Positions 1 through 10,209 of a stretch of DNA of 64,000 nucleotides are shown piece after piece. The stretch is from Nitrosopumilus sp. (GTDB lineage: Archaea; Thermoproteota; Nitrososphaeria; Nitrososphaerales; Nitrosopumilaceae): the NCBI GenBank assembly GCA_965205215.1, contig OZ242041.1, positions 1,120,001-1,184,000 on the forward strand, written 5' to 3'. The notes below the pieces were generated by a model that was given only the letters and a program-made list of their open reading frames with translations, searched no databases and was not told the origin of the DNA. Numbering within the stretch: position 1 is the stretch's first letter; the number at the start of each line of letters is the position of its first letter. The translations under genes were made by a program, and so were the position numbers.

Positions 1-3000
1 CGGGGCCCGACCAGGCGGCGGCCCCCGGCGGCACGGTCACGCTGGACGGCTCGGGCTCCACGGGCCTCGACATCACCTTTTCGTGGGAGCAGACGGGGGG
101 CGCCCCGGCAGTCCGCCTTGACATAGTCGACCCCCGGCCGGCGGGGCATCTCGCCGACACGGACTCCCTCCTGCTTGGCGGCGCCGAGAACGTCGCCACC
201 TTCGAGCACGGCGGTACAACGTACGCCGCGGTCGTCGCGCTGTACGACGACGGCGTCCAGCTGATCAATTTGTCCGACCCCTCAATCCCGCGTGCGGCGG
301 GCCAGCTTAGCGACACGGAATCCCTCGCGCTCGACGACCCGACTGACATAGCCGTCTTCGAGCACTCCGGGATACCGTACGCCGCGGTCACCTCGTTTGG
401 CGAGGACGGCGTCCAGATAGTCAACATGTCCGACCCCGACAACCCGCGGGCGGCGGGCCATCTTATGCACGGGTCCTCGACCTTGCTCGAGTCCCCCACG
501 TACATCGCCGCATTCGAGCGCAACGGCACCGCGTACGCGGTGGTCACCTCGTCATACGACGACGGCGTCCAGATAGTCAACATGTCCGACCCCGCAGACC
601 CGCGGGCGGCGGGCCGAATCGGGGACAACGGCACCCTCCTGCTCGGCGACGCGAGCGACATAGCCACCTTCGAGTCCGGCGGCGCCACGTACGCGGCAGT
701 CGCCTCGTTTGGCGAGCACGGCGTCCAGCTGATTGACGTGTCCGACCCCGCTGACCCGCGTGCGGCGGGCAGCATCGCCGACACCACCGGCACCCTGCTC
801 AACAATACGTCCGGCATCGCCGCCTTCGAGCACGGCGGCACCGCGTACGCGGCCGTCGCCTCGCAGGACGACGCCGGCGTCCAGATAATCAACATGTCAA
901 ACCCCGCAGACCCGCGGGCGGCGGGCCAGCTCGCCGGCACCGCCGGCACCCTGCTTGCCGAAGCCCAGAACATCGCCACCTTCGAGGCGGGCGGCCTTAC
1001 CTACGCCGCCGTCACCTCGCTTGAAGGCGGCGTCCAGATCATCGACCTCTCGAACCCCGAGAAGCCGCGGCCCGCCGGCCGGCTCGCCGCCACTGCCGCC
1101 GGCACCCTGCTCGCCGAAACCTACGGCATCGCCGTCTTCGAGGCGGGCGGCAGCACCTACGCCGCGGTCGGCTCTGTGCCCCAGTCACCCCGCGCCGTCC
1201 AAGGCGTCCAGATAATCGACCTCCTTGACCGCTCGGCCCCGACGTTCACCGCCCCGGCCGCCACCCCCGCGGCCCTCGAGTTCACCCTCACCGTCACGGA
1301 CGCGGGGAACCGGACCGCCGCAGATGCAGTCACGGTGACGGTCCGGGATGCGGCGTCCACTAACAGAGCGCCCGTCGCGGACGCCGGGGACGACCAGACT
1401 GTCAATGAGGGGGCCGCCGTGATCCTTGACGGCTCCGGCTCGTCGGACCTCGACGCGGGTGACACCATCGCGTACTCTTGGCGCCAGACTGCGGGCAGCC
1501 CTACGGTGTCGCTCTCAAACGCCACCGTGCAGCGCCCCGCGTTCACGGCCCCCGAGGTGTCGTCGGACACCGTCCTCGCATTCGAGCTTACCGTATCCGA
1601 CGGGTCCCTGTCGGACACCGATACCGTCAACGTCACCGTAAGGCACGTCAACCGCGCACCCGCCGCGGACGCCGGCGACGACCAGACGGTCACGCAGGGC
1701 GCCGCCGTGACCCTTGACGGCTCCGGCTCGTCGGACCCCGACGCGGGCGACACCATCGCGTACTCTTGGCGCCAGACGGCCGGAACGACGGTCACGCTCA
1801 CGGGCGCGGACACCGCAGCACCGTCGTTCACCGCCCCCGCGGGCCCCGCCACCCTCGTATTCAACCTTACAGTAACCGACTCGGCGTCCCTGGCCGCCCA
1901 CGACGCCGTTACGGTCGCCGTACCGGAGATGACGGTGGATGCCGGGCCCAACCAGTCGGCAACCGTAGGCGACGCGGTCACGCTCACGGGCACTGTGCAG
2001 AACGCGGGCAGCGGGGCCGCGTACCGGTGGACCCAGGACTCCCCGGCGGCCCCGGTCATACCCATAGCCAACAACGACACGCGCGTTGCCACCTTCACGG
2101 CCCCCGCCGTCACGGCGGACACCGCGTTCACGTTCCGGCTGTCTGTCACCGCCGGCACCGTCACCAAGAGCGACACCATTGCAGTCACCGTCCGGGACTC
2201 GACGCCCGCAAACAGCAAGCCCGCCGCGGACGCCGGAGCGGACCAGGCGGTCGACGAGAGGGGGGCCGTGACGCTTGACGGCTCCGGCTCGTCGGATCCC
2301 GACGGTGACCCCATAACGTACTCTTGGCGCCAGACGGCGGGAACTCAGGTCACGCTCTCGAACGCCACCATACAGCGCCCCGCGTTCACCGCCCCCGAGG
2401 TCACAACGGACGCCGTTCTCACCTTTGCGCTTGCGGTATCCGACGGCTCCCTGTCAGATACGGACGCCGTCAACGTCACCGTAAGGCACGTCAACCGCGC
2501 GCCCGTAGCCGACGCGGGGGACGACCGGACGGTAAGCGGGGGCGCCGTTGTGACGCTTGACGGCTCCGGCTCGTCTGACCCCGACGCGGGCGACACTATC
2601 GCGTACTCGTGGGCAAGCAATGAAACGACCCAGAGGACGCTGACCGGCCAAAACCCGGCGTTTACGGCGCCAAGCGTCACGTCCGCCACGGCCATCACGT
2701 TCACCCTCACGGTATCCGACGGCTCCCTGTCAGACACGGACACGGTCGTCATAACGGTGCAGGACGTTCCGCAGCCGCCGCCATCACCGCCGCCATCACC
2801 GCCGCCATCACCGCCGCCATCACCGCCGCCATCACCGCCGCCATCACCACCACCACCCGCGCCCGCAAACATGGCGCCCGACGCGGACGCCGGGGACGAC
2901 CGGACGGTGGACGAGGGCGCCCCCGTAACGCTCGACGGCTCGGGCTCGTCGGACCCCGACGGCGACCCCGTCACGTACTCGTGGCGCCAGACGGCGGGCA

Positions 3001-4850
3001 GCCTGGCGGTCACGCTGTCCGACACCACCGTACAGCGCCCGACGTTCACGGCCCCCGAGGTGTCGTCGGACACCGCCCTCACCTTTGCGCTCACCGTATC
3101 CGACGGGTCCCTGTCGGATACCGACACGGTCACGATAACGGTAAGGGACGCCACCTCCCCCGCGCCGCCGCCCGCAAACATGGCGCCCGACGCGGACGCC
3201 GGGGACGACCGGACGGTGGACGAGGGCGCCCCCGTAACGCTCGACGGCTCGGGCTCGTCGGACCCCGACGGCGACCCCGTCACGTACTCGTGGCGCCAGA
3301 CGGCGGGCAGCCTGGCGGTCACGCTGTCCGATGCCACCGTGCAGCGCCCGACGTTCACGGCCCCCGAGGTGTCGTCGGACACCGCCCTCACCTTTGCGCT
3401 CACCGTATCCGACGGGTCCCTGTCGGATACCGACACGGTCACGATAACGGTAAGGGACGCCACCTCCCCCGCGCCGCCGCCCGCAAACATGGCGCCCGAC
3501 GCGGACGCCGGGGACGACCGGACGGTGGACGAGGGCGCCCCCGTAACGCTCGACGGCTCGGGCTCGTCGGACCCCGACGGCGACCCCGTCACGTACTCGT
3601 GGCGCCAGACGGCGGGCAGCCTGGCGGTCACGCTGTCCGATGCCACCGTGCAGCGCCCGACGTTCACGGCCCCCGAGGTGTCGTCGGACACCGCCCTCAC
3701 CTTTGCGCTCACCGTATCCGACGGCTCCCTGTCCGACACGGCCACCGTTGTCATAACTGTCCGGGACGCGCCGCCGCCGCCCCCGGGCGCGGGACTGGGT
3801 CCGGAAAACGTCACCATAGTCACTTTATACAACGCCGCCATAACGGACGCGGCCGTGTCATCCGACGGCTCCGTCCTGATCGTGACCGCCACCACCCCCA
3901 ACGGCACCGGTACCATACTCTCGTACGACCTGCCCGTGCGCCACGACCCGGCGTCCGCAGTTCCGCGCAACGGCACGGTGGGGATCCCGGCAGAGTACGG
4001 GCAGCCCACCAGCGTTACCGTATCGCCGGACGGCACGAGGATGTTAGTTACCACGGAGGCGTCCGCTGGGGGCTCTTCCTCCCCCGCGTCCGCGCTGCCG
4101 CCGGCCCCGCCGGCCCCGGCCCTCCTCGGACGCGGCGGCCACGCGCCCGCGTTCCTGCCACTGTCGCCCTCCTCCCCGGCCGCCGGCATCGCGCCCCCGC
4201 ATACGGCGTCTTTCCACGACGGAGCCACCGCCACGTACATGCTCGGGTATTCGCTCTCCTCGCCCTTTGACATCTCGACTGCCGTCCTCTCAGATCCAGA
4301 CCTGCTCTCCCCCGGCCGGCTCTCCTCCCCCCCCGCCGGCGCGGCGTTCTCCGGCAACGGCACCATGATGTACGTCGCCGTCCCCTCGCCTGCAGGAGGC
4401 GGCTTCGTACGCTCGTACACCCTGGCGGCCCCGTTCGACCCGTCGTCCCGCGCCCCCGCGGCCGCCCTTCAGGTGCCGCCCTCGCGCGGCGCCATATCGG
4501 ACGTGGCCGTGTCCGCGGACGGTACGGTCATGCTCGTGACGGCCTCCGCCCCCGCCCCCGCCCCCGGCGGCGGCGCCATGCTCTCGTACGCCCTGCCCGC
4601 GCCCTTTGACCTCTCGACCGCGTCCCCGGCCCCGGCCGCGTCCGTGGACGTCCCGGCCGCGCGCGGCGCGCCCGTGGGTATAGCGTTCTTTGGCGACAAC
4701 GGCAGGGCCGCCCTGGTGGCGGCCGCTCTCGCCCCTTCCGGCGGCCAGCCCCCCTCGGCCGACGCCCCGCGCGCGGTGCCGCTGCCCGCCCATCCGGCGG
4801 CCGCGCCGCCCGCGATCCCGGATCTGCTCCCCCTGCTGGTCTGCAGGTGA
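1..4850 (+). CDS. Giant surface protein, 5' end outside the window: LVIVD-like beta-propeller repeats, multiple PKD/K319L-like Ig domains, Pro-rich linkers, C-terminal 'YxLxxPFDxSTA' propeller repeats
   Basis: Frame is open from position 3 (GPDQAAAPGGTVTLDGSGS...). Repeated 'GVQIINMSDPADPRAAG' units and 'NRAPVADAGDDQTV.EG..VTLDGSGSSDPDG..ITYSWRQTAG' units. 'YSLSSPFDISTA' repeats as in Cenarchaeum-type giant proteins. Confidence 0.9.
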   Translation, partial: GPDQAAAPGGTVTLDGSGSTGLDITFSWEQTGGAPAVRLDIVDPRPAGHLADTDSLLLGGAENVATFEHGGTTYAAVVALYDDGVQLINLSDPSIPRAAGQLSDTESLALDDPTDIAVFEHSGIPYAAVTSFGEDGVQIVNMSDPDNPRAAGHLMHGSSTLLESPTYIAAFERNGTAYAVVTSSYDDGVQIVNMSDPADPRAAGRIGDNGTLLLGDASDIATFESGGATYAAVASFGEHGVQLIDVSDPADPRAAGSIADTTGTLLNNTSGIAAFEHGGTAYAAVASQDDAGVQIINMSNPADPRAAGQLAGTAGTLLAEAQNIATFEAGGLTYAAVTSLEGGVQIIDLSNPEKPRPAGRLAATAAGTLLAETYGIAVFEAGGSTYAAVGSVPQSPRAVQGVQIIDLLDRSAPTFTAPAATPAALEFTLTVTDAGNRTAADAVTVTVRDAASTNRAPVADAGDDQTVNEGAAVILDGSGSSDLDAGDTIAYSWRQTAGSPTVSLSNATVQRPAFTAPEVSSDTVLAFELTVSDGSLSDTDTVNVTVRHVNRAPAADAGDDQTVTQGAAVTLDGSGSSDPDAGDTIAYSWRQTAGTTVTLTGADTAAPSFTAPAGPATLVFNLTVTDSASLAAHDAVTVAVPEMTVDAGPNQSATVGDAVTLTGTVQNAGSGAAYRWTQDSPAAPVIPIANNDTRVATFTAPAVTADTAFTFRLSVTAGTVTKSDTIAVTVRDSTPANSKPAADAGADQAVDERGAVTLDGSGSSDPDGDPITYSWRQTAGTQVTLSNATIQRPAFTAPEVTTDAVLTFALAVSDGSLSDTDAVNVTVRHVNRAPVADAGDDRTVSGGAVVTLDGSGSSDPDAGDTIAYSWASNETTQRTLTGQNPAFTAPSVTSATAITFTLTVSDGSLSDTDTVVITVQDVPQPPPSPPPSPPPSPPPSPPPSPPPSPPPPAPANMAPDADAGDDRTVDEGAPVTLDGSGSSDPDGDPVTYSWRQTAGSLAVTLSDTTVQRPTFTAPEVSSDTALTFALTVSDGSLSDTDTVTITVRDATSPAPPPANMAPDADAGDDRTVDEGAPVTLDGSGSSDPDGDPVTYSWRQTAGSLAVTLSDATVQRPTFTAPEVSSDTALTFALTVSDGSLSDTDTVTITVRDATSPAPPPANMAPDADAGDDRTVDEGAPVTLDGSGSSDPDGDPVTYSWRQTAGSLAVTLSDATVQRPTFTAPEVSSDTALTFALTVSDGSLSDTATVVITVRDAPPPPPGAGLGPENVTIVTLYNAAITDAAVSSDGSVLIVTATTPNGTGTILSYDLPVRHDPASAVPRNGTVGIPAEYGQPTSVTVSPDGTRMLVTTEASAGGSSSPASALPPAPPAPALLGRGGHAPAFLPLSPSSPAAGIAPPHTASFHDGATATYMLGYSLSSPFDISTAVLSDPDLLSPGRLSSPPAGAAFSGNGTMMYVAVPSPAGGGFVRSYTLAAPFDPSSRAPAAALQVPPSRGAISDVAVSADGTVMLVTASAPAPAPGGGAMLSYALPAPFDLSTASPAPAASVDVPAARGAPVGIAFFGDNGRAALVAAALAPSGGQPPSADAPRAVPLPAHPAAAPPAIPDLLPLLVCR
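2775..2852 (+). repeat. 12-bp tandem repeat (ccgccgccatca) encoding (PPPS)n linker
   Basis: About 6 consecutive copies read directly from the sequence. Confidence 0.95.
2860..3775 (+). repeat. Three near-identical 309-bp tandem copies, each encoding one PKD-like domain
   Basis: 'aacatggcgcccgacgcggac' ATGs at 2871, 3180 and 3489 (period 309). Confidence 0.95.
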
Positions 4851-5653: not shown

Positions 5654-5977
5654 GTGGAGCTTGAAGATGTCCAGAGAAAGGTCCAGTTCCGGCAGGGATC
5701 CTATGTCGTGACCATACCGCTCCGGATAGTACACGCGCTGGGAATCCGCAAGAGTCAGTACGTCAGGTTCGCCGTCTCAAAGAACAAGATCATCATAAAG
5801 CCCGTCGAGTCCAACATTACGAAAAAGGACGTGGCCGAGGCAGACCGGGACTCTGCCGCGCTCGACAGGTACGGGGAGCGGGAGGACGCCGGCTACATGG
5901 GGGACCTCGCCGAGGCCCTGGCGCGCAGGCCGGATGATGCGGGGTTCGGCCGAATCGAGAAGCTCAGGATGAAGTGA
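5654..5977 (+). CDS. AbrB/MazE/SpoVT-family DNA-binding protein (paralogue 1)
   Basis: 'RKVQFRQGSYVVTIPLRIVHALGIRKSQYVRFAVSKNKIIIKP' is a swapped-hairpin AbrB motif. GTG start ~25 bp after a TTTTATG TATA-like box. Confidence 0.85.
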   Translation: MELEDVQRKVQFRQGSYVVTIPLRIVHALGIRKSQYVRFAVSKNKIIIKPVESNITKKDVAEADRDSAALDRYGEREDAGYMGDLAEALARRPDDAGFGRIEKLRMK

Positions 5978-6894
5978 TAGCCGAAGGCCTCTTTTTCTGC
6001 CCCCTCGTCCGGCCGCCCCCCGATTCCTTGTCCGGGGGCTCTCGGCCCATACGTGACACTCTGCCAAGTCCTGCTTGGTGTACGCTTTATCATGCTGTAC
6101 GTGACGTGTTCCGGGCGGTTCCGAGTCCAGCTTGCGGGTTACATCGCGGCGCTTACCGAGACCTCCCGGGAAGTCACAGGCCGCCAAGTCGGCCCGGTCC
6201 CTGCCCTTTTAGATCCGCTGGGTGGCCGTGCCGCGAACAGCCCTTACCTGAGATGTGCCCGGACCGTCTTTGTCGCCGGACCTGCTGGTGCCCGTGCTGG
6301 TGCCTGCCTGCCTGCCTGCCAGAGTCGACAAAGTCGCGCCCGGAGCCTGTTGTTGGAGGGAACAGCTGGCTTCGCTGAGGCGGAATCGACAGGATGGGTG
6401 TAACACGCCGACACGGCGGGCAATCTAATGCCAGTGGCCCGGCCGCTTGATTCGTCCGCGTCCGATGAAAATGGGAGCGCAGGCGCGAAGAGCCCCCACG
6501 ATACGGCCCTCTCGTGCAGGATCGGCGACGGGCGTCCGACCATCCCGGGACGGGAAAGACCCTGAGACTAGAGTTGCTGGATGGCCTGACCCACATCGGG
6601 GACGGCCGTGACGGAACGCGCCCAGGAGCGTGACATCGTGGACGGGACAGCCGCGCCAGATCTTGGGCCGCGTGACGTCGCGCGCGATGTTCTGACCCTG
6701 CTGCCCTGAAGTTGCCCGGGGCGGACTCGCGCCTGCCCGGTGGACTCCCGGCCCTGCCGGAGGGGCGCCGGCTTGGCGGCGCCCCGTATGTGAAACGTGT
6801 CGGGGGATCTCCGGTTGTCGTCTGGGTGACGTGCCAGTATGCGAGTGGTGTGTTCGACTCGTGCCGTCAAATTATGAGCGCGCTCTGGGAGCTT

Positions 6895-7068
6895 TGCGCG
6901 CCCGCCAGAAGCGCCAAAAGCGCCATCTGCGCGCCCGCCAGAAGCGCCAAAAGCGCCATCTGCGCGCCCGCCAGAAGCGCCAAAAGCGCCATCTGCGCGC
7001 CCGCCAGAAGCGCCAAAAGCGCCATTCGCGCCCTTTGCGCGCCCGCCAGAAGCGCCCTTTGCGCGCCC
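6895..7068 (+). repeat. 33-bp tandem repeat (tgcgcgcccgccagaagcgccaaaagcgccatc) x4 plus partial copies
   Basis: Copies start at 6895, 6928, 6961 and 6994, with a partial copy at ~7036. The array ends just upstream of the TATA-like box of AbrB paralogue 2. Confidence 0.95.
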
Positions 7069-7103: not shown

Positions 7104-7415
7104 ATGGATGGAGGGAAGACGCTGGAGCGGAGGATTCAGCTGAGGGGGCGCTCCTTTGTGCTGACGATCCCGCGGGACGTGATGGAAAAGATGAAGATCC
7201 GCAACGGGCAGAGCGTAAGATTCCTGGTTGGGGATGGGGAGGTCGTGCTCAGGCCCATGAGCGCGGGGGCGGGCGACAGTGCCGCGGACTCCGCCGAACC
7301 CGACAAGTACGCGAAGGCCATAGAGGAGATGATGGCCAAGAACGAATCCGAAAGGTCCGGCGGCCGGAGTGCGGCACCCCGGAGGAGCAAGCTGGAAAGG
7401 CTCCAGATCAAGTGA
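7104..7415 (+). CDS. AbrB/MazE/SpoVT-family DNA-binding protein (paralogue 2)
   Basis: 'RRIQLRGRSFVLTIPRDVMEKMKIRNGQSVRFLVGDGEVVLRP'. CTTAAA box at ~7076-7081. Alternative start at 7092. Confidence 0.85.
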   Translation: MDGGKTLERRIQLRGRSFVLTIPRDVMEKMKIRNGQSVRFLVGDGEVVLRPMSAGAGDSAADSAEPDKYAKAIEEMMAKNESERSGGRSAAPRRSKLERLQIK

Positions 7416-7620
7416 CCGTGCCCGTCCCCCGCGTTTGCCGAAAACAGCCGAACCTGTCGGATCCTTGGGCCCTGAAACCGCACGCGGCCCCGCCCGGCCC
7501 CGCCCATGTGCCGCCGGATCGTCCCGCCGCGCCCCTGTCGTCTCCCGTGACGCCGCTGTACAGGCTGCCCGGCGCGCAGGCGGCCGGCCCGGGGCCGGCG
7601 GCATCCTACGGCCGCTGCCC

Positions 7621-8385
7621 GGCGCCGCTTCTGCCCCCGTGCCGGCAGATGCCCGGACTGTGCGGAGGGAGGAGCTGGCTGTAGCGTGACGGCAGCGACA
7701 GATCGTGATAATGGCGGTGCGGAAGGCGGCATACGCCGGGAGGCGCCATGGACGGCGCAGTACCCAAAAAGAATCACAGAGCTCTATGATTCTTTCTGGG
7801 TATCTGCCGCGGCCCGTTCCTGCCCCCGTGCCGGCCAGATGCCCGGATTGTATGGTGGGGGGGGGGGCGGAGCCGGTTAGCGTGACGGCAGCGGCAGGGG
7901 CGGACCATAGCATGCGGTGCGGAAAGCGGCATACGCCGGGAGGCGGCCCAGACGACGCAGTTACCCGGTAACAATCACGGAGCTTGTTGATCGTTTCCGG
8001 GTAACCGCCGCGGCCCGTTCCTGCACCCATGCCGGCCAGATGCCTAGATTGTGCGGGGGGCGGAGCCCATCATAGCGTGACGGCAGCGGCAGATCATGAT
8101 AATGACGGTGCGGAAGGCGGCATACGCCGGGAGGCGGCCCAGACGACGCAGTTACCCGGTAACAATCATAGTGCTCTATGATTGTTACCGGGTAACCGCC
8201 GCGGCCCGTTCCTGCACCCATGCCGGCCAGATGCCTGGATTGTGCGGGGGGCGGAGCCCATCATAGCGTGACGGCAGCGGCAGATCATGATAATGACGGT
8301 GCGGAAGGCGGCATACGCCGGGAGGCGGCCCAGACGATGTAGTACGCGGTAACAATCATAGAGCTCTATGATTCTTTCCGCGTAC
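7621..8385. repeat. Non-coding array of four ~185-200-bp units, each ending in a 42-46-bp imperfect palindrome
   Basis: Units start at ~7621, 7806, 8007 and 8198. Palindromes at 7761-7802, 7960-8005, 8151-8196 and 8342-8385. The 191-bp period between units 3 and 4 is not a multiple of 3. Confidence 0.9.
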
Positions 8386-8529
8386 CCTCCTCCGCTCTTT
8401 TCCTCCACAGGCACTGCCACTCCGCAGGCCGGGCTGCACGCTCCACGCGTACGAGGTACCGGGGACATCAGCGGAAGAGTCCCCCGCCGGCGCCTCGTTG
8501 GAAAGTGGAATGCGCGTCCGCGCGCACGA

Positions 8530-8712
8530 TCAGGAACCGTTCTCCGTCCCGTCGCGCTCGTCTCCAAGGCCCAGGAGCGCCGCCCGCACGCGGGCCTGGT
8601 GGGCCCCCAGCGCCGCCCTGAGATCCGCAATCTGGACCCCCATGGACGCCATCTTGGATCTGATCAGCGCGATCTCGTCAGTGGAAATTGAGATTGAAAT
8701 CCTGTGCTTCAC
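8530..8712 (-). CDS. Small putative ribbon-helix-helix/coiled-coil protein
   Basis: 'KHRISISISTDEIALIRSKMASMGVQIADLRAAL' has an alternating beta-ribbon followed by two helices. GTG ~25 bp downstream of TTTAAA (8735-8740). Co-oriented with the integrase. Confidence 0.5.
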   Translation of the reverse strand: MKHRISISISTDEIALIRSKMASMGVQIADLRAALGAHQARVRAALLGLGDERDGTENGS

Positions 8713-8887: not shown

Positions 8888-10063
8888 CTATCGGCCGTCC
8901 CTCTTTGAGATCAGGACGTTCTCGAGTATCTCCCGCACCGACGCGTAGCTGCTCTCGAGCCTGGCAATGCGCTCGTGCAGGTCCTCGTTCTCCCGCTCGA
9001 TCACCCCCACCTTCTTGTCGCTTGCCTCGGCCTGCCTCTCGATGGCGCTCCGCAGTTCGGCCTCCTCTGATATGGTCAGGTTCGGCACCGCCGCCGCGTA
9101 CTGCTCCAGCAGGTACTCTTCGGGCGGCTTGTAGTAGTTCTCGGCGTGCCCCATCAGCTTTTCCACGTCGATGGTCTTCATGGTCCGCTCAGCGTTGGTC
9201 TTGAAGTACTTGCGGAACCCGTGGATCTGCTTGAACTCGTGCCCCGCCGCGCGCGCTCGCGTCTTGTTGCGCATGTTGAGCGTCTTGAGGAACCTTCCCA
9301 TCATGTTTGATATGGTCTTGGAGGCAAGGGGCGTGGCGGTGCCCGGATCCTTTCTCCGGCCCTTGCGGTACGGGTGGGTGTCCCAGGCGTCCCTTATGAG
9401 CGGCGAGTCGTCCGTCACTCTTTCGCCCGCCTCCTCGCGCATAGTCCTGTACCTGAGCAGCGCCTCGTGGCACTCGGGGCTCACAAACGTGACATACTCC
9501 TCTGCAGAGTCCCTGTACACCAGGAGGCGCGCCGCGCTAACGCCGCTGCCCTCCTTTGCGGGCACCGGCGTCACGTCTCCCCACCGCATGCCGTCAAACG
9601 CGCCCACCCTTATCCCGGAGCTTGCGCACACCAGGATGATGCACCTTGTGCGCGCGTCGGCCGCGTCCACCATGAGCCGTATCTCCTGTATGGTGGGGGC
9701 GCGGTCGCTTCCCGTCTTGCGGACGCGCGGCATTATCTTTGTGATTTTCTTCCACGATATCGCGTCCTCGGCATCGTTCATCTCAAAAAAGTGCTTGAGG
9801 GACACGACGGTCTGGTTTATCGTCGAGCCGGAGACCTCGTTTCTGCGCTCCTCCACAAAGTCTATGATGCGCCGCCGCACCCGCACCGGGTTTCTGCGCG
9901 CCTCCTCCAGCAGGTCGTCGGGCGCAATCCCGTTGGCATCCAGGAACTGGCACAGCTTGCGCGAATACCCGACCCTCGTCTCCTCGCTTTTGAACCCCTT
10001 GAGGAACTGTTGGACGGACTCTGACTTTACGTCGAGGGCCCTTGGCAGCGGCTGCCGGTACAT
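8888..10063 (-). CDS. Tyrosine recombinase/integrase (thaumarchaeal tRNA-associated type)
   Basis: Catalytic motifs SSGIRVG (R), IHGFRK (HxxR), LMGH and ENYY (Y). C-terminal coiled coil. Starts ~50 bp beyond the tRNA 3' end. Confidence 0.93.
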   Translation of the reverse strand: MYRQPLPRALDVKSESVQQFLKGFKSEETRVGYSRKLCQFLDANGIAPDDLLEEARRNPVRVRRRIIDFVEERRNEVSGSTINQTVVSLKHFFEMNDAEDAISWKKITKIMPRVRKTGSDRAPTIQEIRLMVDAADARTRCIILVCASSGIRVGAFDGMRWGDVTPVPAKEGSGVSAARLLVYRDSAEEYVTFVSPECHEALLRYRTMREEAGERVTDDSPLIRDAWDTHPYRKGRRKDPGTATPLASKTISNMMGRFLKTLNMRNKTRARAAGHEFKQIHGFRKYFKTNAERTMKTIDVEKLMGHAENYYKPPEEYLLEQYAAAVPNLTISEEAELRSAIERQAEASDKKVGVIERENEDLHERIARLESSYASVREILENVLISKRDGR

Positions 10064-10113
10064 CACAACTAGTACGCATGCCCTGATTTTAAGCATTTCC
10101 GAATCATTTGTAG

Positions 10114-10209
10114 TGCAGAGAGTGGGATTTGAACCCACGAACTCCTAAGAGAAGGGATCACTTACGGATCTTGAGTCCCTCTCGGTTGACCGGGCTTCGA
10201 TATCTCTGC
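10114..10209 (-). tRNA. tRNA-Leu(CAA) with 11-nt intron at 37/38 (intron 10159-10169)
   Basis: Acceptor GCAGAGA/TCTCTGC+A. Anticodon stem AGGGA/TCCCT with loop CT-CAA-G^A. Long variable arm. T arm GTGGG-TTCAAAT-CCCAC. Confidence 0.93.

Follow-up and report, generated by a model that had tools for sequence, protein, structure and literature searches.

What does a run of similar, apparently gene-less DNA units, each closed by a palindrome, do beside an integrase gene in an archaeal chromosome? The question is posed by a stretch of 64,000 nucleotides from a Nitrosopumilus sp. (positions 1,120,001 to 1,184,000 of contig OZ242041.1, assembly GCA_965205215.1), referred to here as the window, in a host genome that is a single contig of 2,098,239 bp with 60% G+C. 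Within the window, 7615..8385 is occupied by four tandem units of ~191 bp, each a body of ~145 bp with a palindrome at its end, and that palindrome of 46 bp, called PAL in what follows, belongs to a family. The reading towards which we lean, tentatively, is that PAL is a foldable, protein-bound cis-site of the backbone of integrated elements, which would act as a distal operator for proteins of AbrB type. The mobile elements of ammonia-oxidising archaea are known almost solely by their gene content, and PAL adds to this a sharply defined candidate cis-site that, at 46 bp, is easy to synthesise. (Positions in kb, and those of six or seven digits, are in the host genome; the others are in the window.)

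The anatomy sketched in an earlier note, of tandem units of about 190 bp each ending in a palindrome, is borne out. Tandem Repeats Finder reports the array as 7631-8384 with a period of 191, 3.9 copies, 83% matches and a score of 971, and the register of the repeat family places the start of the first unit at 7615; identities between unit bodies are 76-99%. An inverted-repeat search finds a palindrome of 44-46 bp with a loop of 0-10 nt in each unit, and the palindrome sequences quoted in that note agree with the letters of the window. H1 (7759..7804, centre between 7781 and 7782) has 21-nt arms at 90% (7761-7802) and an outer arm of CCCAA/CTGGG; H2 (7960..8005, centre between 7982 and 7983) has 21-nt arms at 86% and heterotypic inner boxes, TCACGG / CTTGTTGA; H3 (8151..8196, centre between 8173 and 8174) has 24-nt arms at 96% (8148-8199), with perfect 21-bp arms around TGCT; and H4 (8341..8386, centre between 8363 and 8364) has 22-nt arms at 91% (8342-8385), an outer arm of GCGG/CCGC and inner arms of two different subtypes. 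When single strands of DNA are folded, the energies of the four range from -11.7 kcal/mol (H2, z -3.5) through -14.2 (H4, z -7.3) and -14.4 (H1, z -6.5) to -23.7 (H3, z -10.9), and none of 200 shuffles equals any of them. With up to 3 mismatches allowed, the window has 7 matches to the half-site GGTAACAATCATAG, where 2.09 would be expected and none of 100 shuffles has as many; all but one of the 7 are in the array. Differences are, as had been claimed, concentrated in the palindromes: of 154 bases aligned between the bodies of units 3 and 4, 2 are different (98.7% identity), and H3 and H4 differ at ~9 of 46 positions by a hand count from the alignment rows, two compensated pairs included. No open reading frame (ORF) that passes the codon-usage caller is present in the units, the ORFs listed there overlapping on both strands. 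The physical link to a tyrosine recombinase also stands, with 503 bp from the array to the integrase stop codon, and with PALs at several loci here and in four other genomes following the 3′ end of an integrase gene (or of a small ORF downstream of it) at a distance of 90-500 bp.

That sequence varies while symmetry is preserved is statistically strong, and the compensatory changes in the outer arms, first remarked on for the window, are real and general across the whole family. In an ungapped alignment of 53 distinct copies from five species, whose consensus is GTTACCCGCAAACAATCATAGAGCTCTATGATTGTTTGCGGGTAAC, ten columns are invariant (C10, TCA at 19-21, TGA at 32-34, TT at 38-39 and G43) and the outer boxes read GTTAC...GTAAC. 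Over the 21 arm pairs 90.9% of cells pair, compared with 80.8% in shuffles, and changes on both sides are found at 13 of the 21, in 93 cells. The covariation score of the arms is 0.244 versus 0.093 in shuffles, none of 500 of which reaches the observed value, and shifting the partner arm by 1-3 columns abolishes the signal. The excess of complementarity peaks at columns 5, 9, 12, 13 and 16-18 and disappears in the three columns that flank the site; an abrupt end of symmetry at a loop of 4 nt was considered and rejected, the excess instead fading gradually over the central ten or so bases. Chimeric palindromes, pointed out earlier for H4, are not peculiar to the window, as arms of different subtype are common in the family. 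Several copies have inherited heterotypic arms (TCATAG opposite TCAACAAG, and AAT opposite TTT), and other genomes have both alleles in homotypic form. A small palindrome, GTTACCcGGTAAC, makes up the outer part of each arm in type-I copies. What looked like a further palindrome family in the flanks turned out to be neighbouring PALs and was rejected.

Under any reading, arm covariation of this kind needs pairing within a strand. Such pairing could be selected, or the covariation could be a by-product of template-switch correction of quasi-palindromes, a mechanism known from the bacterial literature. Among the 83 arm cells that are not Watson-Crick, 49 are transversion-type, 22 are A.C and 12 are G.T; being mostly transversion-type, with few G.T, the mismatches are not RNA-like. 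PAL in this respect offers a clean natural case, a compensated DNA palindrome without RNA-like wobble, in which to ask whether long palindromes of archaeal genomes owe their symmetry to selection or to template-switch repair.

How widely is the family spread? A profile built from 12 copies finds 21 full PALs and one half-site in the host genome, and a covariance model gives 39 strand-matches there, at ~20 places. The 21 copies are grouped in 11 clusters, each of them lying between predicted genes. At ten of these an AbrB-domain, integrase or transposase gene is among the Pfam-annotated neighbours; the eleventh, at 996 kb, is a fragment of ~210 bp, 93% identical to the copy at 963.6 kb, that adjoins a transposase gene of IS630 type. 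The covariance-model search of related genomes that the earlier note had suggested was run, and places PAL in 5 of the 150 other congeneric genomes searched, four with 5-14 places each and one with a single weak match. A 29-letter pattern (one arm plus the centre) was also scanned over 596 Gb of species-representative genomes, where it matched 19 stretches (two pairs of which overlap), all from four metagenome-assembled genomes of Nitrosopumilaceae, with zero chance matches elsewhere in the 596 Gb; one metagenome contig matches it too. This pattern replaced one of 18 letters (14 specified bases and 2 W), whose matches, at least 118 stretches, were swamped by chance ones; 15 viral contigs matched the shorter pattern, none a family member by profile. 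The draw for a core-motif scan of 60 relatives did not include the PAL-bearing species, so that these were missed. PAL is a small family restricted to integrated plasmid-like elements of a few sponge-type ammonia-oxidising archaea (Nitrosopumilaceae). Two deflationary possibilities raised beforehand fall away on these results: with all 11 clusters in mobile-element contexts PAL is not a palindromic repeat dispersed genome-wide, and with copies in other species and arms that covary it is not a duplication within a single genome.

The elements themselves, as drawn from gene calling, searches of Pfam, PHROGs and NCBIfam, and BLAST between loci (given L numbers here, as genomes are given G numbers), have a canonical order. 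It runs tRNA, integrase, (orf60), PAL(s), orf94, orf138, an actin/ParM-like gene, a ParE-like gene, a gene for 421 aa, a VirD4-like ATPase gene, abrB2 on the opposite strand, a non-coding stretch, abrB1 and cargo, the last including an OLD-family nuclease, a Dcm methylase with a GHKL ATPase, and giant adhesins. The ParM-like protein matches phrog_691 'partition protein' at 1e-18 and orf94 has a weak pilin-like match; the 421-aa gene is DUF8128-like by atlas features, atlas searches with its product and with a 485-aa protein returning only hypothetical or DUF8128 clusters. From PAL to abrB2 the order is complete at 630-636 kb (L036) and at 1898-1904 kb (L042), the latter copy adjoining tRNA-Ile, with no integrase found beside it. 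(The two ~6-kb copies of the module, from orf94 and orf138 through the ParM-like, ParE-like and 421-aa genes to the VirD4-like ATPase gene, are 89% identical.) The junction of PAL with orf94/ParM after an integrase (orf60) is also present in other species (L206, L209, L211 and L220). In intact elements the ParM-like gene is 0.9-1.2 kb downstream of PAL, and the orf94 promoter, TTTTATCATAT, comes ~70 to 330 bp downstream of PAL, as estimated from the alignment; a fixed distance between PAL and promoter was sought and rejected, the distance being variable.

Elements without the operon are found in the window, at 625 kb and at 907 kb (the last integrated at tRNA-Lys); the two outside the window, unlike the one in it, still have a decayed 5′ fragment of orf94 between PALs and abrB2. 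Other species have the same arrangement: integrase, three PALs and abrB2 (opposite strand) in L207; integrase and five PALs in L216, with an abrB2-like match at G155:C2:1922916 (two separately fetched loci of one contig); and the side from PAL to abrB in L212 (three PALs), L215 (two) and L219 (three, adjoining abrB1 and abrB2), with no integrase within the 2-kb flanks fetched for these last. As it recurs in other species, the operon-less form is a stable architecture and not a one-off decay. PALs number 2-5 in operon-less elements versus 1-2 in intact contexts. A third context, at 669 kb and 1978 kb, has abrB60, PAL, a gene for 231/267 aa and one for 485 aa, divergent from a four-gene operon, with PAL roughly 85-190 bp (again an estimate from the alignment) upstream of the second-operon promoter. 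The run from abrB60 through PAL to the 231/267-aa gene is also in L204, L213 and L223, and less completely in L218, where the contig ends just past PAL, and L222, where another gene intervenes. In PAL-less relatives (L243-L251; G163, G157, G081, G031, G159, G161 and G078) homologues of the 276/368/229-aa genes of the 669-kb/1978-kb module are directly upstream of the ParM-like and ATPase genes. From this position of the four-gene operon directly upstream of ParM, the two modules, separate in the host genome, belong to one larger, apparently conjugative backbone resembling an integrative and conjugative element (ICE).

In the window the integration target is tRNA-Leu(CAA) (10113..10209, minus strand). 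Its 3′ end is abutted by the tyrosine integrase gene (8888..10066, minus strand), which encodes 392 aa from an ATG at 10063-10066, a longer start at 10096 being possible. The protein matches phrog_1 integrase at 4.7e-10 and PF00589 at 22.4 bits, below the cut-off of 27.1; relatives of 44-93% identity are found across Nitrosopumilaceae and in Nitrosotalea, and weaker ones (29%) in two Nitrososphaeraceae contigs. Travelling with this type of integrase is orf60 (8530..8712, minus strand), an ORF of 60 codons with homologues of 75-78% identity after the integrase in L044, L045, L054 and L214, and with no family match in Pfam, PHROGs or NCBIfam. The last 16 nt of the tRNA gene (10113-10128) are repeated directly 22.6 kb leftward, at 1107535-1107550, which is 12.5 kb left of the window, and contigs from other samples match tRNA-Leu and the right flank and diverge leftward at 10121-10124; the array is therefore probably inside an integrated element of 22.6 kb bounded by the 16-nt repeat. 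Left of the array, and solitary like abrB1 further left, is abrB2 (7104..7415, plus strand), for a 103-aa protein with an AbrB/MazE/SpoVT domain (PF04014 at 4.2e-08, 33.4 bits, cut-off 24.7) that is a candidate PAL-binding regulator. Two observations on the tRNA site itself may be added. The divergent contigs, over 10121-10159, suggest alternative occupancy of this site in related strains, and the tRNA is of 97 nt by ARAGORN, Rfam aligning all 71 model positions over 96 nt, which points to a long variable arm or an intron.

Where did four units come from? Many PALs have a directional flank on one side (...GGGGGATGATCTGC...GGAACGGGCTGCGGC), which in intact elements sits between PAL and the orf94 promoter, and repeat units are copies of PAL plus this flank, 124-133 bp long at 625 kb and 191 bp in the window. 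In the window, the unit bodies share homology with flanks of the 959-kb PALs and, over ~20-30 nt, with that of the PAL at 1898 kb; the units run the opposite way to the ones at 625 kb and 907 kb. An extension of the arm, GAACGGGCTGCGG, flanks nine PALs and is on both sides of the one at 959189. Units being copies of PAL and flank, the array with its regular 191-bp spacing is a local tandem amplification; outside the window, PAL spacings range between 65 and 645 bp. In four public DNA runs the assembled contigs break at repeats, and joints such as that from 7803 to 8143 have sides of ~31 nt; the joints probably reflect assembly at repeats, with several loose ends from paralogous PAL loci.

Which protein might be the partner of PAL? 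A specific link to this particular integrase clade, raised in the earlier note, is not supported: PALs are beside integrases of at least three families, 22-29% identical to one another, and the same integrase type is present without PAL in L044 (93% identity), L046 (76%) and L054 (71-78%, the copy being called as two ORFs). The ParM-like gene is in 27 of the 150 genomes, including the four rich in PAL and the one with the weak match, and 22 carriers are without a PAL match. Nine loci from seven PAL-less genomes (two of the loci from G031, with 61% G+C) have ParM and the ATPase, eight of the nine with an adjoining AbrB homologue (31-71% identity), and no PAL-like palindrome is found in any of them. 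For the AbrB-type genes, abrB60 is in exactly the same four PAL-rich genomes and in 0 of the other 146, and abrB2 homologues of at least 47% identity are in only those four of the 150, relatives of only 27-37% identity being in four PAL-less genomes. As is a feature of operators of AbrB type, a PF04014 gene is commonly in the same locus: within 1.5 kb of six of the 11 host clusters and within 6.5 kb of nine, with genome profiles agreeing in four of four, and 11 of the 15 PF04014 matches in the host genome are inside PAL loci. VapB2, a swapped-hairpin antitoxin of PF04014, binds a near-perfect palindromic operator of 27 bp, one dimer per half-site, with half-sites that are themselves nearly palindromic (PMC3326315). 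Such binding of near-perfect palindromes by PF04014 proteins, taken with the genome-by-genome co-occurrence, makes AbrB-type proteins the best candidate partners of PAL.

On the reading of PAL as a distal AbrB-type operator, the one or two PALs of an intact element lie in what would be a control region, after the integration module (tRNA, integrase, orf60) and before the transfer/maintenance operon (pilin-like orf94, ParM-like actin, VirD4-like ATPase), and other PALs lie between abrB60, a short AbrB gene, and the second operon. The products of abrB2 and/or abrB60 would bind PAL as double-stranded DNA, with dimers on the nested dyads GTTACCcGGTAAC - TCATAG....CTATGA - GTTACCgGGTAAC, and the operon would be silent while the element is integrated. 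Because PAL is a long, AT-centred palindrome it might also self-pair, as a cruciform or as a lagging-strand hairpin, and this pairing would keep the arms alike after a change, via selection or via the template-switch correction of quasi-palindromes. The window element is a reduced one: its operon has been lost, and PAL with its ~145-bp flank has been amplified fourfold, as would follow from unequal exchange between PALs. Likeness to the VapB2 operator of Rickettsia felis (PMC3326315) extends to the near-perfect palindrome, the nested dyads, the adjoining PF04014 genes and, in the solved complex, two dimers per palindrome. The differences from it are that PAL is of 46 bp and not 27, that it is 70-330 bp upstream of promoters and not over them, that it comes in arrays of up to 5, that its arms are compensated, that it has no toxin partner, and that binding to PAL is putative.

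Several considerations weigh against this operator role. PAL does not overlap or abut the conserved TATA-like motifs, and from its place 70-330 bp upstream at variable distance it is not a promoter-overlapping operator, so that the classic geometry is lacking; archaeal repressors usually overlap the region of TATA, TFB-recognition element (BRE) and start. A common DNA-reading surface of abrB2 and abrB60 is not evident, similarity of their DNA-binding domains having been considered and rejected at only 16% identity, and the 33-bp-period repeats upstream of abrB2 (described below) could be the real operator of AbrB2. No AbrB gene is close to the clusters at 996 kb and 1223 kb. Further, the PAL genomes may be one clade with one element lineage, in which case the counts of co-occurrence are not independent. 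A dimer site alone leaves compensated changes at 13 of 21 arm positions unexplained, intrastrand pairing being an extra assumption, and the higher number of PALs in operon-less elements than in intact ones is not predicted by an operator.

That last pattern is what would be expected if defective elements multiply cis-sites, and it leads to a possible, though doubtful, alternative in which PAL is a site for maintenance or transfer: an element of a replication origin, a centromere-like partition site for the ParM-like system, or a transfer locus for the VirD4-like ATPase, with reduced elements amplifying the site to be served in trans by intact elements in the same cell. Intact elements do encode the ParM-like protein and the VirD4-like ATPase, with PAL upstream of that operon; the flexible position relative to promoters is as expected, the surrounding ~2.5 kb is mostly non-coding and has the iteron-like 33-bp-period repeats, and ability to fold together with arm covariation would suit an origin or a transfer site recognised in hairpin form. 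However, no replication initiator, relaxase or HUH protein is recognised in any element by Pfam, PHROGs, NCBIfam or the atlas, the 22 genomes with ParM-like and ATPase genes and no PAL match (nine loci from seven of which have no comparable palindrome) argue the other way, and PAL is also in the abrB60 module, which in the host genome has no ParM gene nearby. The centromeres of plasmids, parC of ParMRC and sopC of F, are pertinent here. Like PAL arrays (for which binding is putative) they are repeated protein-binding sites, placed upstream of an operon for partition that includes an actin-like ATPase, and are open to tandem amplification; parC, though, consists of short direct repeats right at the promoter, whereas PAL is long, palindromic and variably distant from it, some ParM elements have no PAL, no adaptor is recognised in the operon, and the window element has no ParM gene. 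We consider it unlikely that PALs are instead recombination sites, at whose conserved centre a tyrosine or other recombinase would exchange strands, shuffling modules and giving deletions, inversions and tandem arrays (both inversion and deletion being possible because the site is symmetric). Integrase genes adjoin PALs at five of the 11 host clusters and at many loci elsewhere, inverted arms around a conserved centre of 8-16 bp resemble recombinase core sites, palindromes with arms of different subtypes are frequent, and the window array is inverted compared with the arrays at 625 kb and 907 kb. PAL arrays moreover exactly fill the variable gap from the homology of integrase and orf60 (which ends at 8481-8512) to that of abrB2 (ending at 7418-7419), homology of the 630-kb locus with the 1898-kb copy begins 7 nt past PAL, and H3 and H4 differ about ten times as much as their flanks. 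Set against this, one core site common to integrases as divergent as those beside PALs is unlikely, three loci with this integrase type are without PAL, and the tRNA att sites that the integrases already have are at the opposite end of the gene. Chimeric PALs (H4, 626042 and 963591) keep matching outer arms while their inner arms differ, which a single central exchange would not yield; the deletion junction at 996 kb is, on a reading of coordinates, ~100 nt from PAL; the contig joints in public runs probably come from assembly; and, as set out below, the features of integrons are lacking.

A role for PAL at the level of RNA is less probable again. As a hairpin in transcripts running from integrase/orf60 or abrB60 into the next operon it would be a signal for processing, stability or termination, and the array a string of hairpin-ended transcripts; the place of PAL between co-directional genes in most intact contexts, the strong arm covariation and the directional repeat units would all be in keeping with this. 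At 630 kb, however, PAL is between divergent genes, on account of which a terminator was rejected, and no T run follows the hairpins. In addition, only the 12 G.T and 22 A.C among the 83 mismatches could be wobble (on either strand), the AT-rich promoter-like motif of the units is not kept in unit 2 or in the 959-kb unit, and no Rfam match is above noise. Rfam 15 gives only two tRNAs at gathering score in the window, the array at E<=1 yielding microRNA-hairpin noise of 21-23 bits against cut-offs of 62-196. The array of structured non-coding RNA entertained in the earlier note as one option found no positive support; no RNA run listed among the public ones contains the stretch, a blank that tells neither for nor against expression. 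Lowest in our estimate is a selfish palindromic repeat, akin to repetitive extragenic palindromes (REP) or miniature inverted-repeat transposable elements (MITE), spread in the non-coding DNA of the elements and without function for them. PAL is, as are REP, bacterial interspersed mosaic elements (BIME) and MITE, a multi-copy, intergenic, clade-restricted palindrome, and some copies are short transplanted fragments, such as the ~210 bp at 996 kb. It differs in being confined to mobile-element control regions at all 11 clusters and not chromosome-wide, in the position kept across five species in two module contexts, and in core boxes that are invariant in 53 distinct copies (10 columns). No RAYT/IS200-type transposase is near any cluster by Pfam among 77 neighbouring proteins, with no systematic look for target-site duplications. 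A further idea is that PALs work folded, as cruciform or single-strand hairpin, and are an archaeal counterpart of sites of attC/oriT type, by which integrase, cargo and transfer modules are swapped, with stripped-down elements hitching a ride on intact ones, arrays being amplified cis-sites and covariation reflecting selection for the fold. It is put forward as an outside chance.

In comparisons with known systems, PAL resembles the palindromic operators of the AbrB family and plasmid cis-repeat arrays, and fails those features of integrons, CRISPR and REP/MITE that were tested. Integrons, reportedly present in archaea according to work by Ghaly and colleagues (Ghaly et al., of 2022), have attC arrays that are, like PAL, integrase-linked imperfect palindromes whose structure is kept while sequence varies. 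The consensus of attC is RYYYAAC...GTTRRRY, compared with PAL boxes of GTTAC...GTAAC, and PAL is found beside unrelated integrases. The integron-like reading offered in the earlier note is not supported. The array is 503 bp past the stop codon, at the 3′ end of the integrase gene, and a tRNA att site is at the 5′ end of that gene, where an integron array would begin with attI, divergent from intI; the units are gene-less copies of one another, with bodies 76-99% identical, and not cassettes that each pair a different, usually promoter-less ORF with an attC; and the NCBIfam model recomb_XerA_Arch ('tyrosine recombinase/integron integrase') scores 39.8 bits against a cut-off of 220. The exclusion of CRISPR was sound, as the would-be spacers are homologous to one another; no CRISPR family is among the Rfam matches of the window, no search for cas genes having been made. 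A protelomerase tel site was considered as well, and set aside since an element has several PALs and is integrated at a tRNA gene.

The cryptic integrated elements and ICEs described for thaumarchaea are, in the main text of Krupovic et al. 2019 (PMC6563490), integrated at tRNA genes and have tyrosine integrases, VirD4-type ATPases, and defence or adhesin cargo. By the scheme of that text the PAL elements would be classed as cryptic integrated or ICE-like, having the same types of integration, integrase, ATPase and cargo, but the ICEs described in it carry ParB and TFIIB and not ParM and AbrB. AbrB, SpoVT, ParM, actin and MreB are absent from the main text of PMC6563490, and 'palindrom' occurs in it once, in the title of a CRISPR reference. 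With the same restriction to its main text, no published description of the PAL family was found in the literature.

If PALs work folded, or are sites of recombination or transfer, their interest rises sharply. With two AbrB subfamilies, the integrases and the products of the ParM/VirD4 operon as candidate partners, control of these elements is testable in vitro, though the hosts are uncultured sponge-associated archaea. The giant adhesins and defence genes in the cargo mean that mobility of the elements bears on interactions of symbiont with host and of symbiont with virus.

Attention is finally drawn to the leftward part of the window element. Another AbrB/MazE/SpoVT-domain gene, abrB1 (5654..5977, plus strand; 107 aa), matches PF04014 at 2.5e-05 and 24.6 bits, just below the cut-off of 24.7; the copies of it at 623 kb and 904 kb have 89-93% identity, and a PAL-less genome has a homologue of 71% identity. 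Between it and abrB2 is a conserved non-coding stretch of ~900 bp (5978..6894), with 72-77% blastn identity to other loci (the 623-kb and 904-kb copies). A hidden toxin or other gene was considered for this gap and rejected, since tblastx between loci shows no consistent reading frame, and so no toxin partner. It is followed, upstream of abrB2, by an iteron-like tandem repeat of 33-bp period in 4.3 copies (6895..7033). Every copy of abrB2 is preceded by such an array, of 4-8 copies, the unit sequence differing by locus and GC blocks alternating with A/T tracts; those elsewhere in the genome are at 905931-906183, 624366-624518, 958436-958612, 1904396-1904664 and 636326-636561. These arrays may be the AbrB2 operator or an origin element.

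As for cargo, the window element has two giant genes for PKD-repeat surface proteins, of 2772 and 1932 aa. The 3′ part of a giant PKD-repeat surface protein gene at 3..4850 (plus strand; K319L-like PKD domain, 1.9e-135), within the span set by the 16-nt repeat, is probable cargo. This adhesin gene has 2.8 copies of a 309-bp repeat at 99% identity (2860-3733) and six perfect 12-bp repeats that encode a PPPS run (2775-2848). The PALs at 996 kb and 1223 kb, too, come after giant surface-protein genes.

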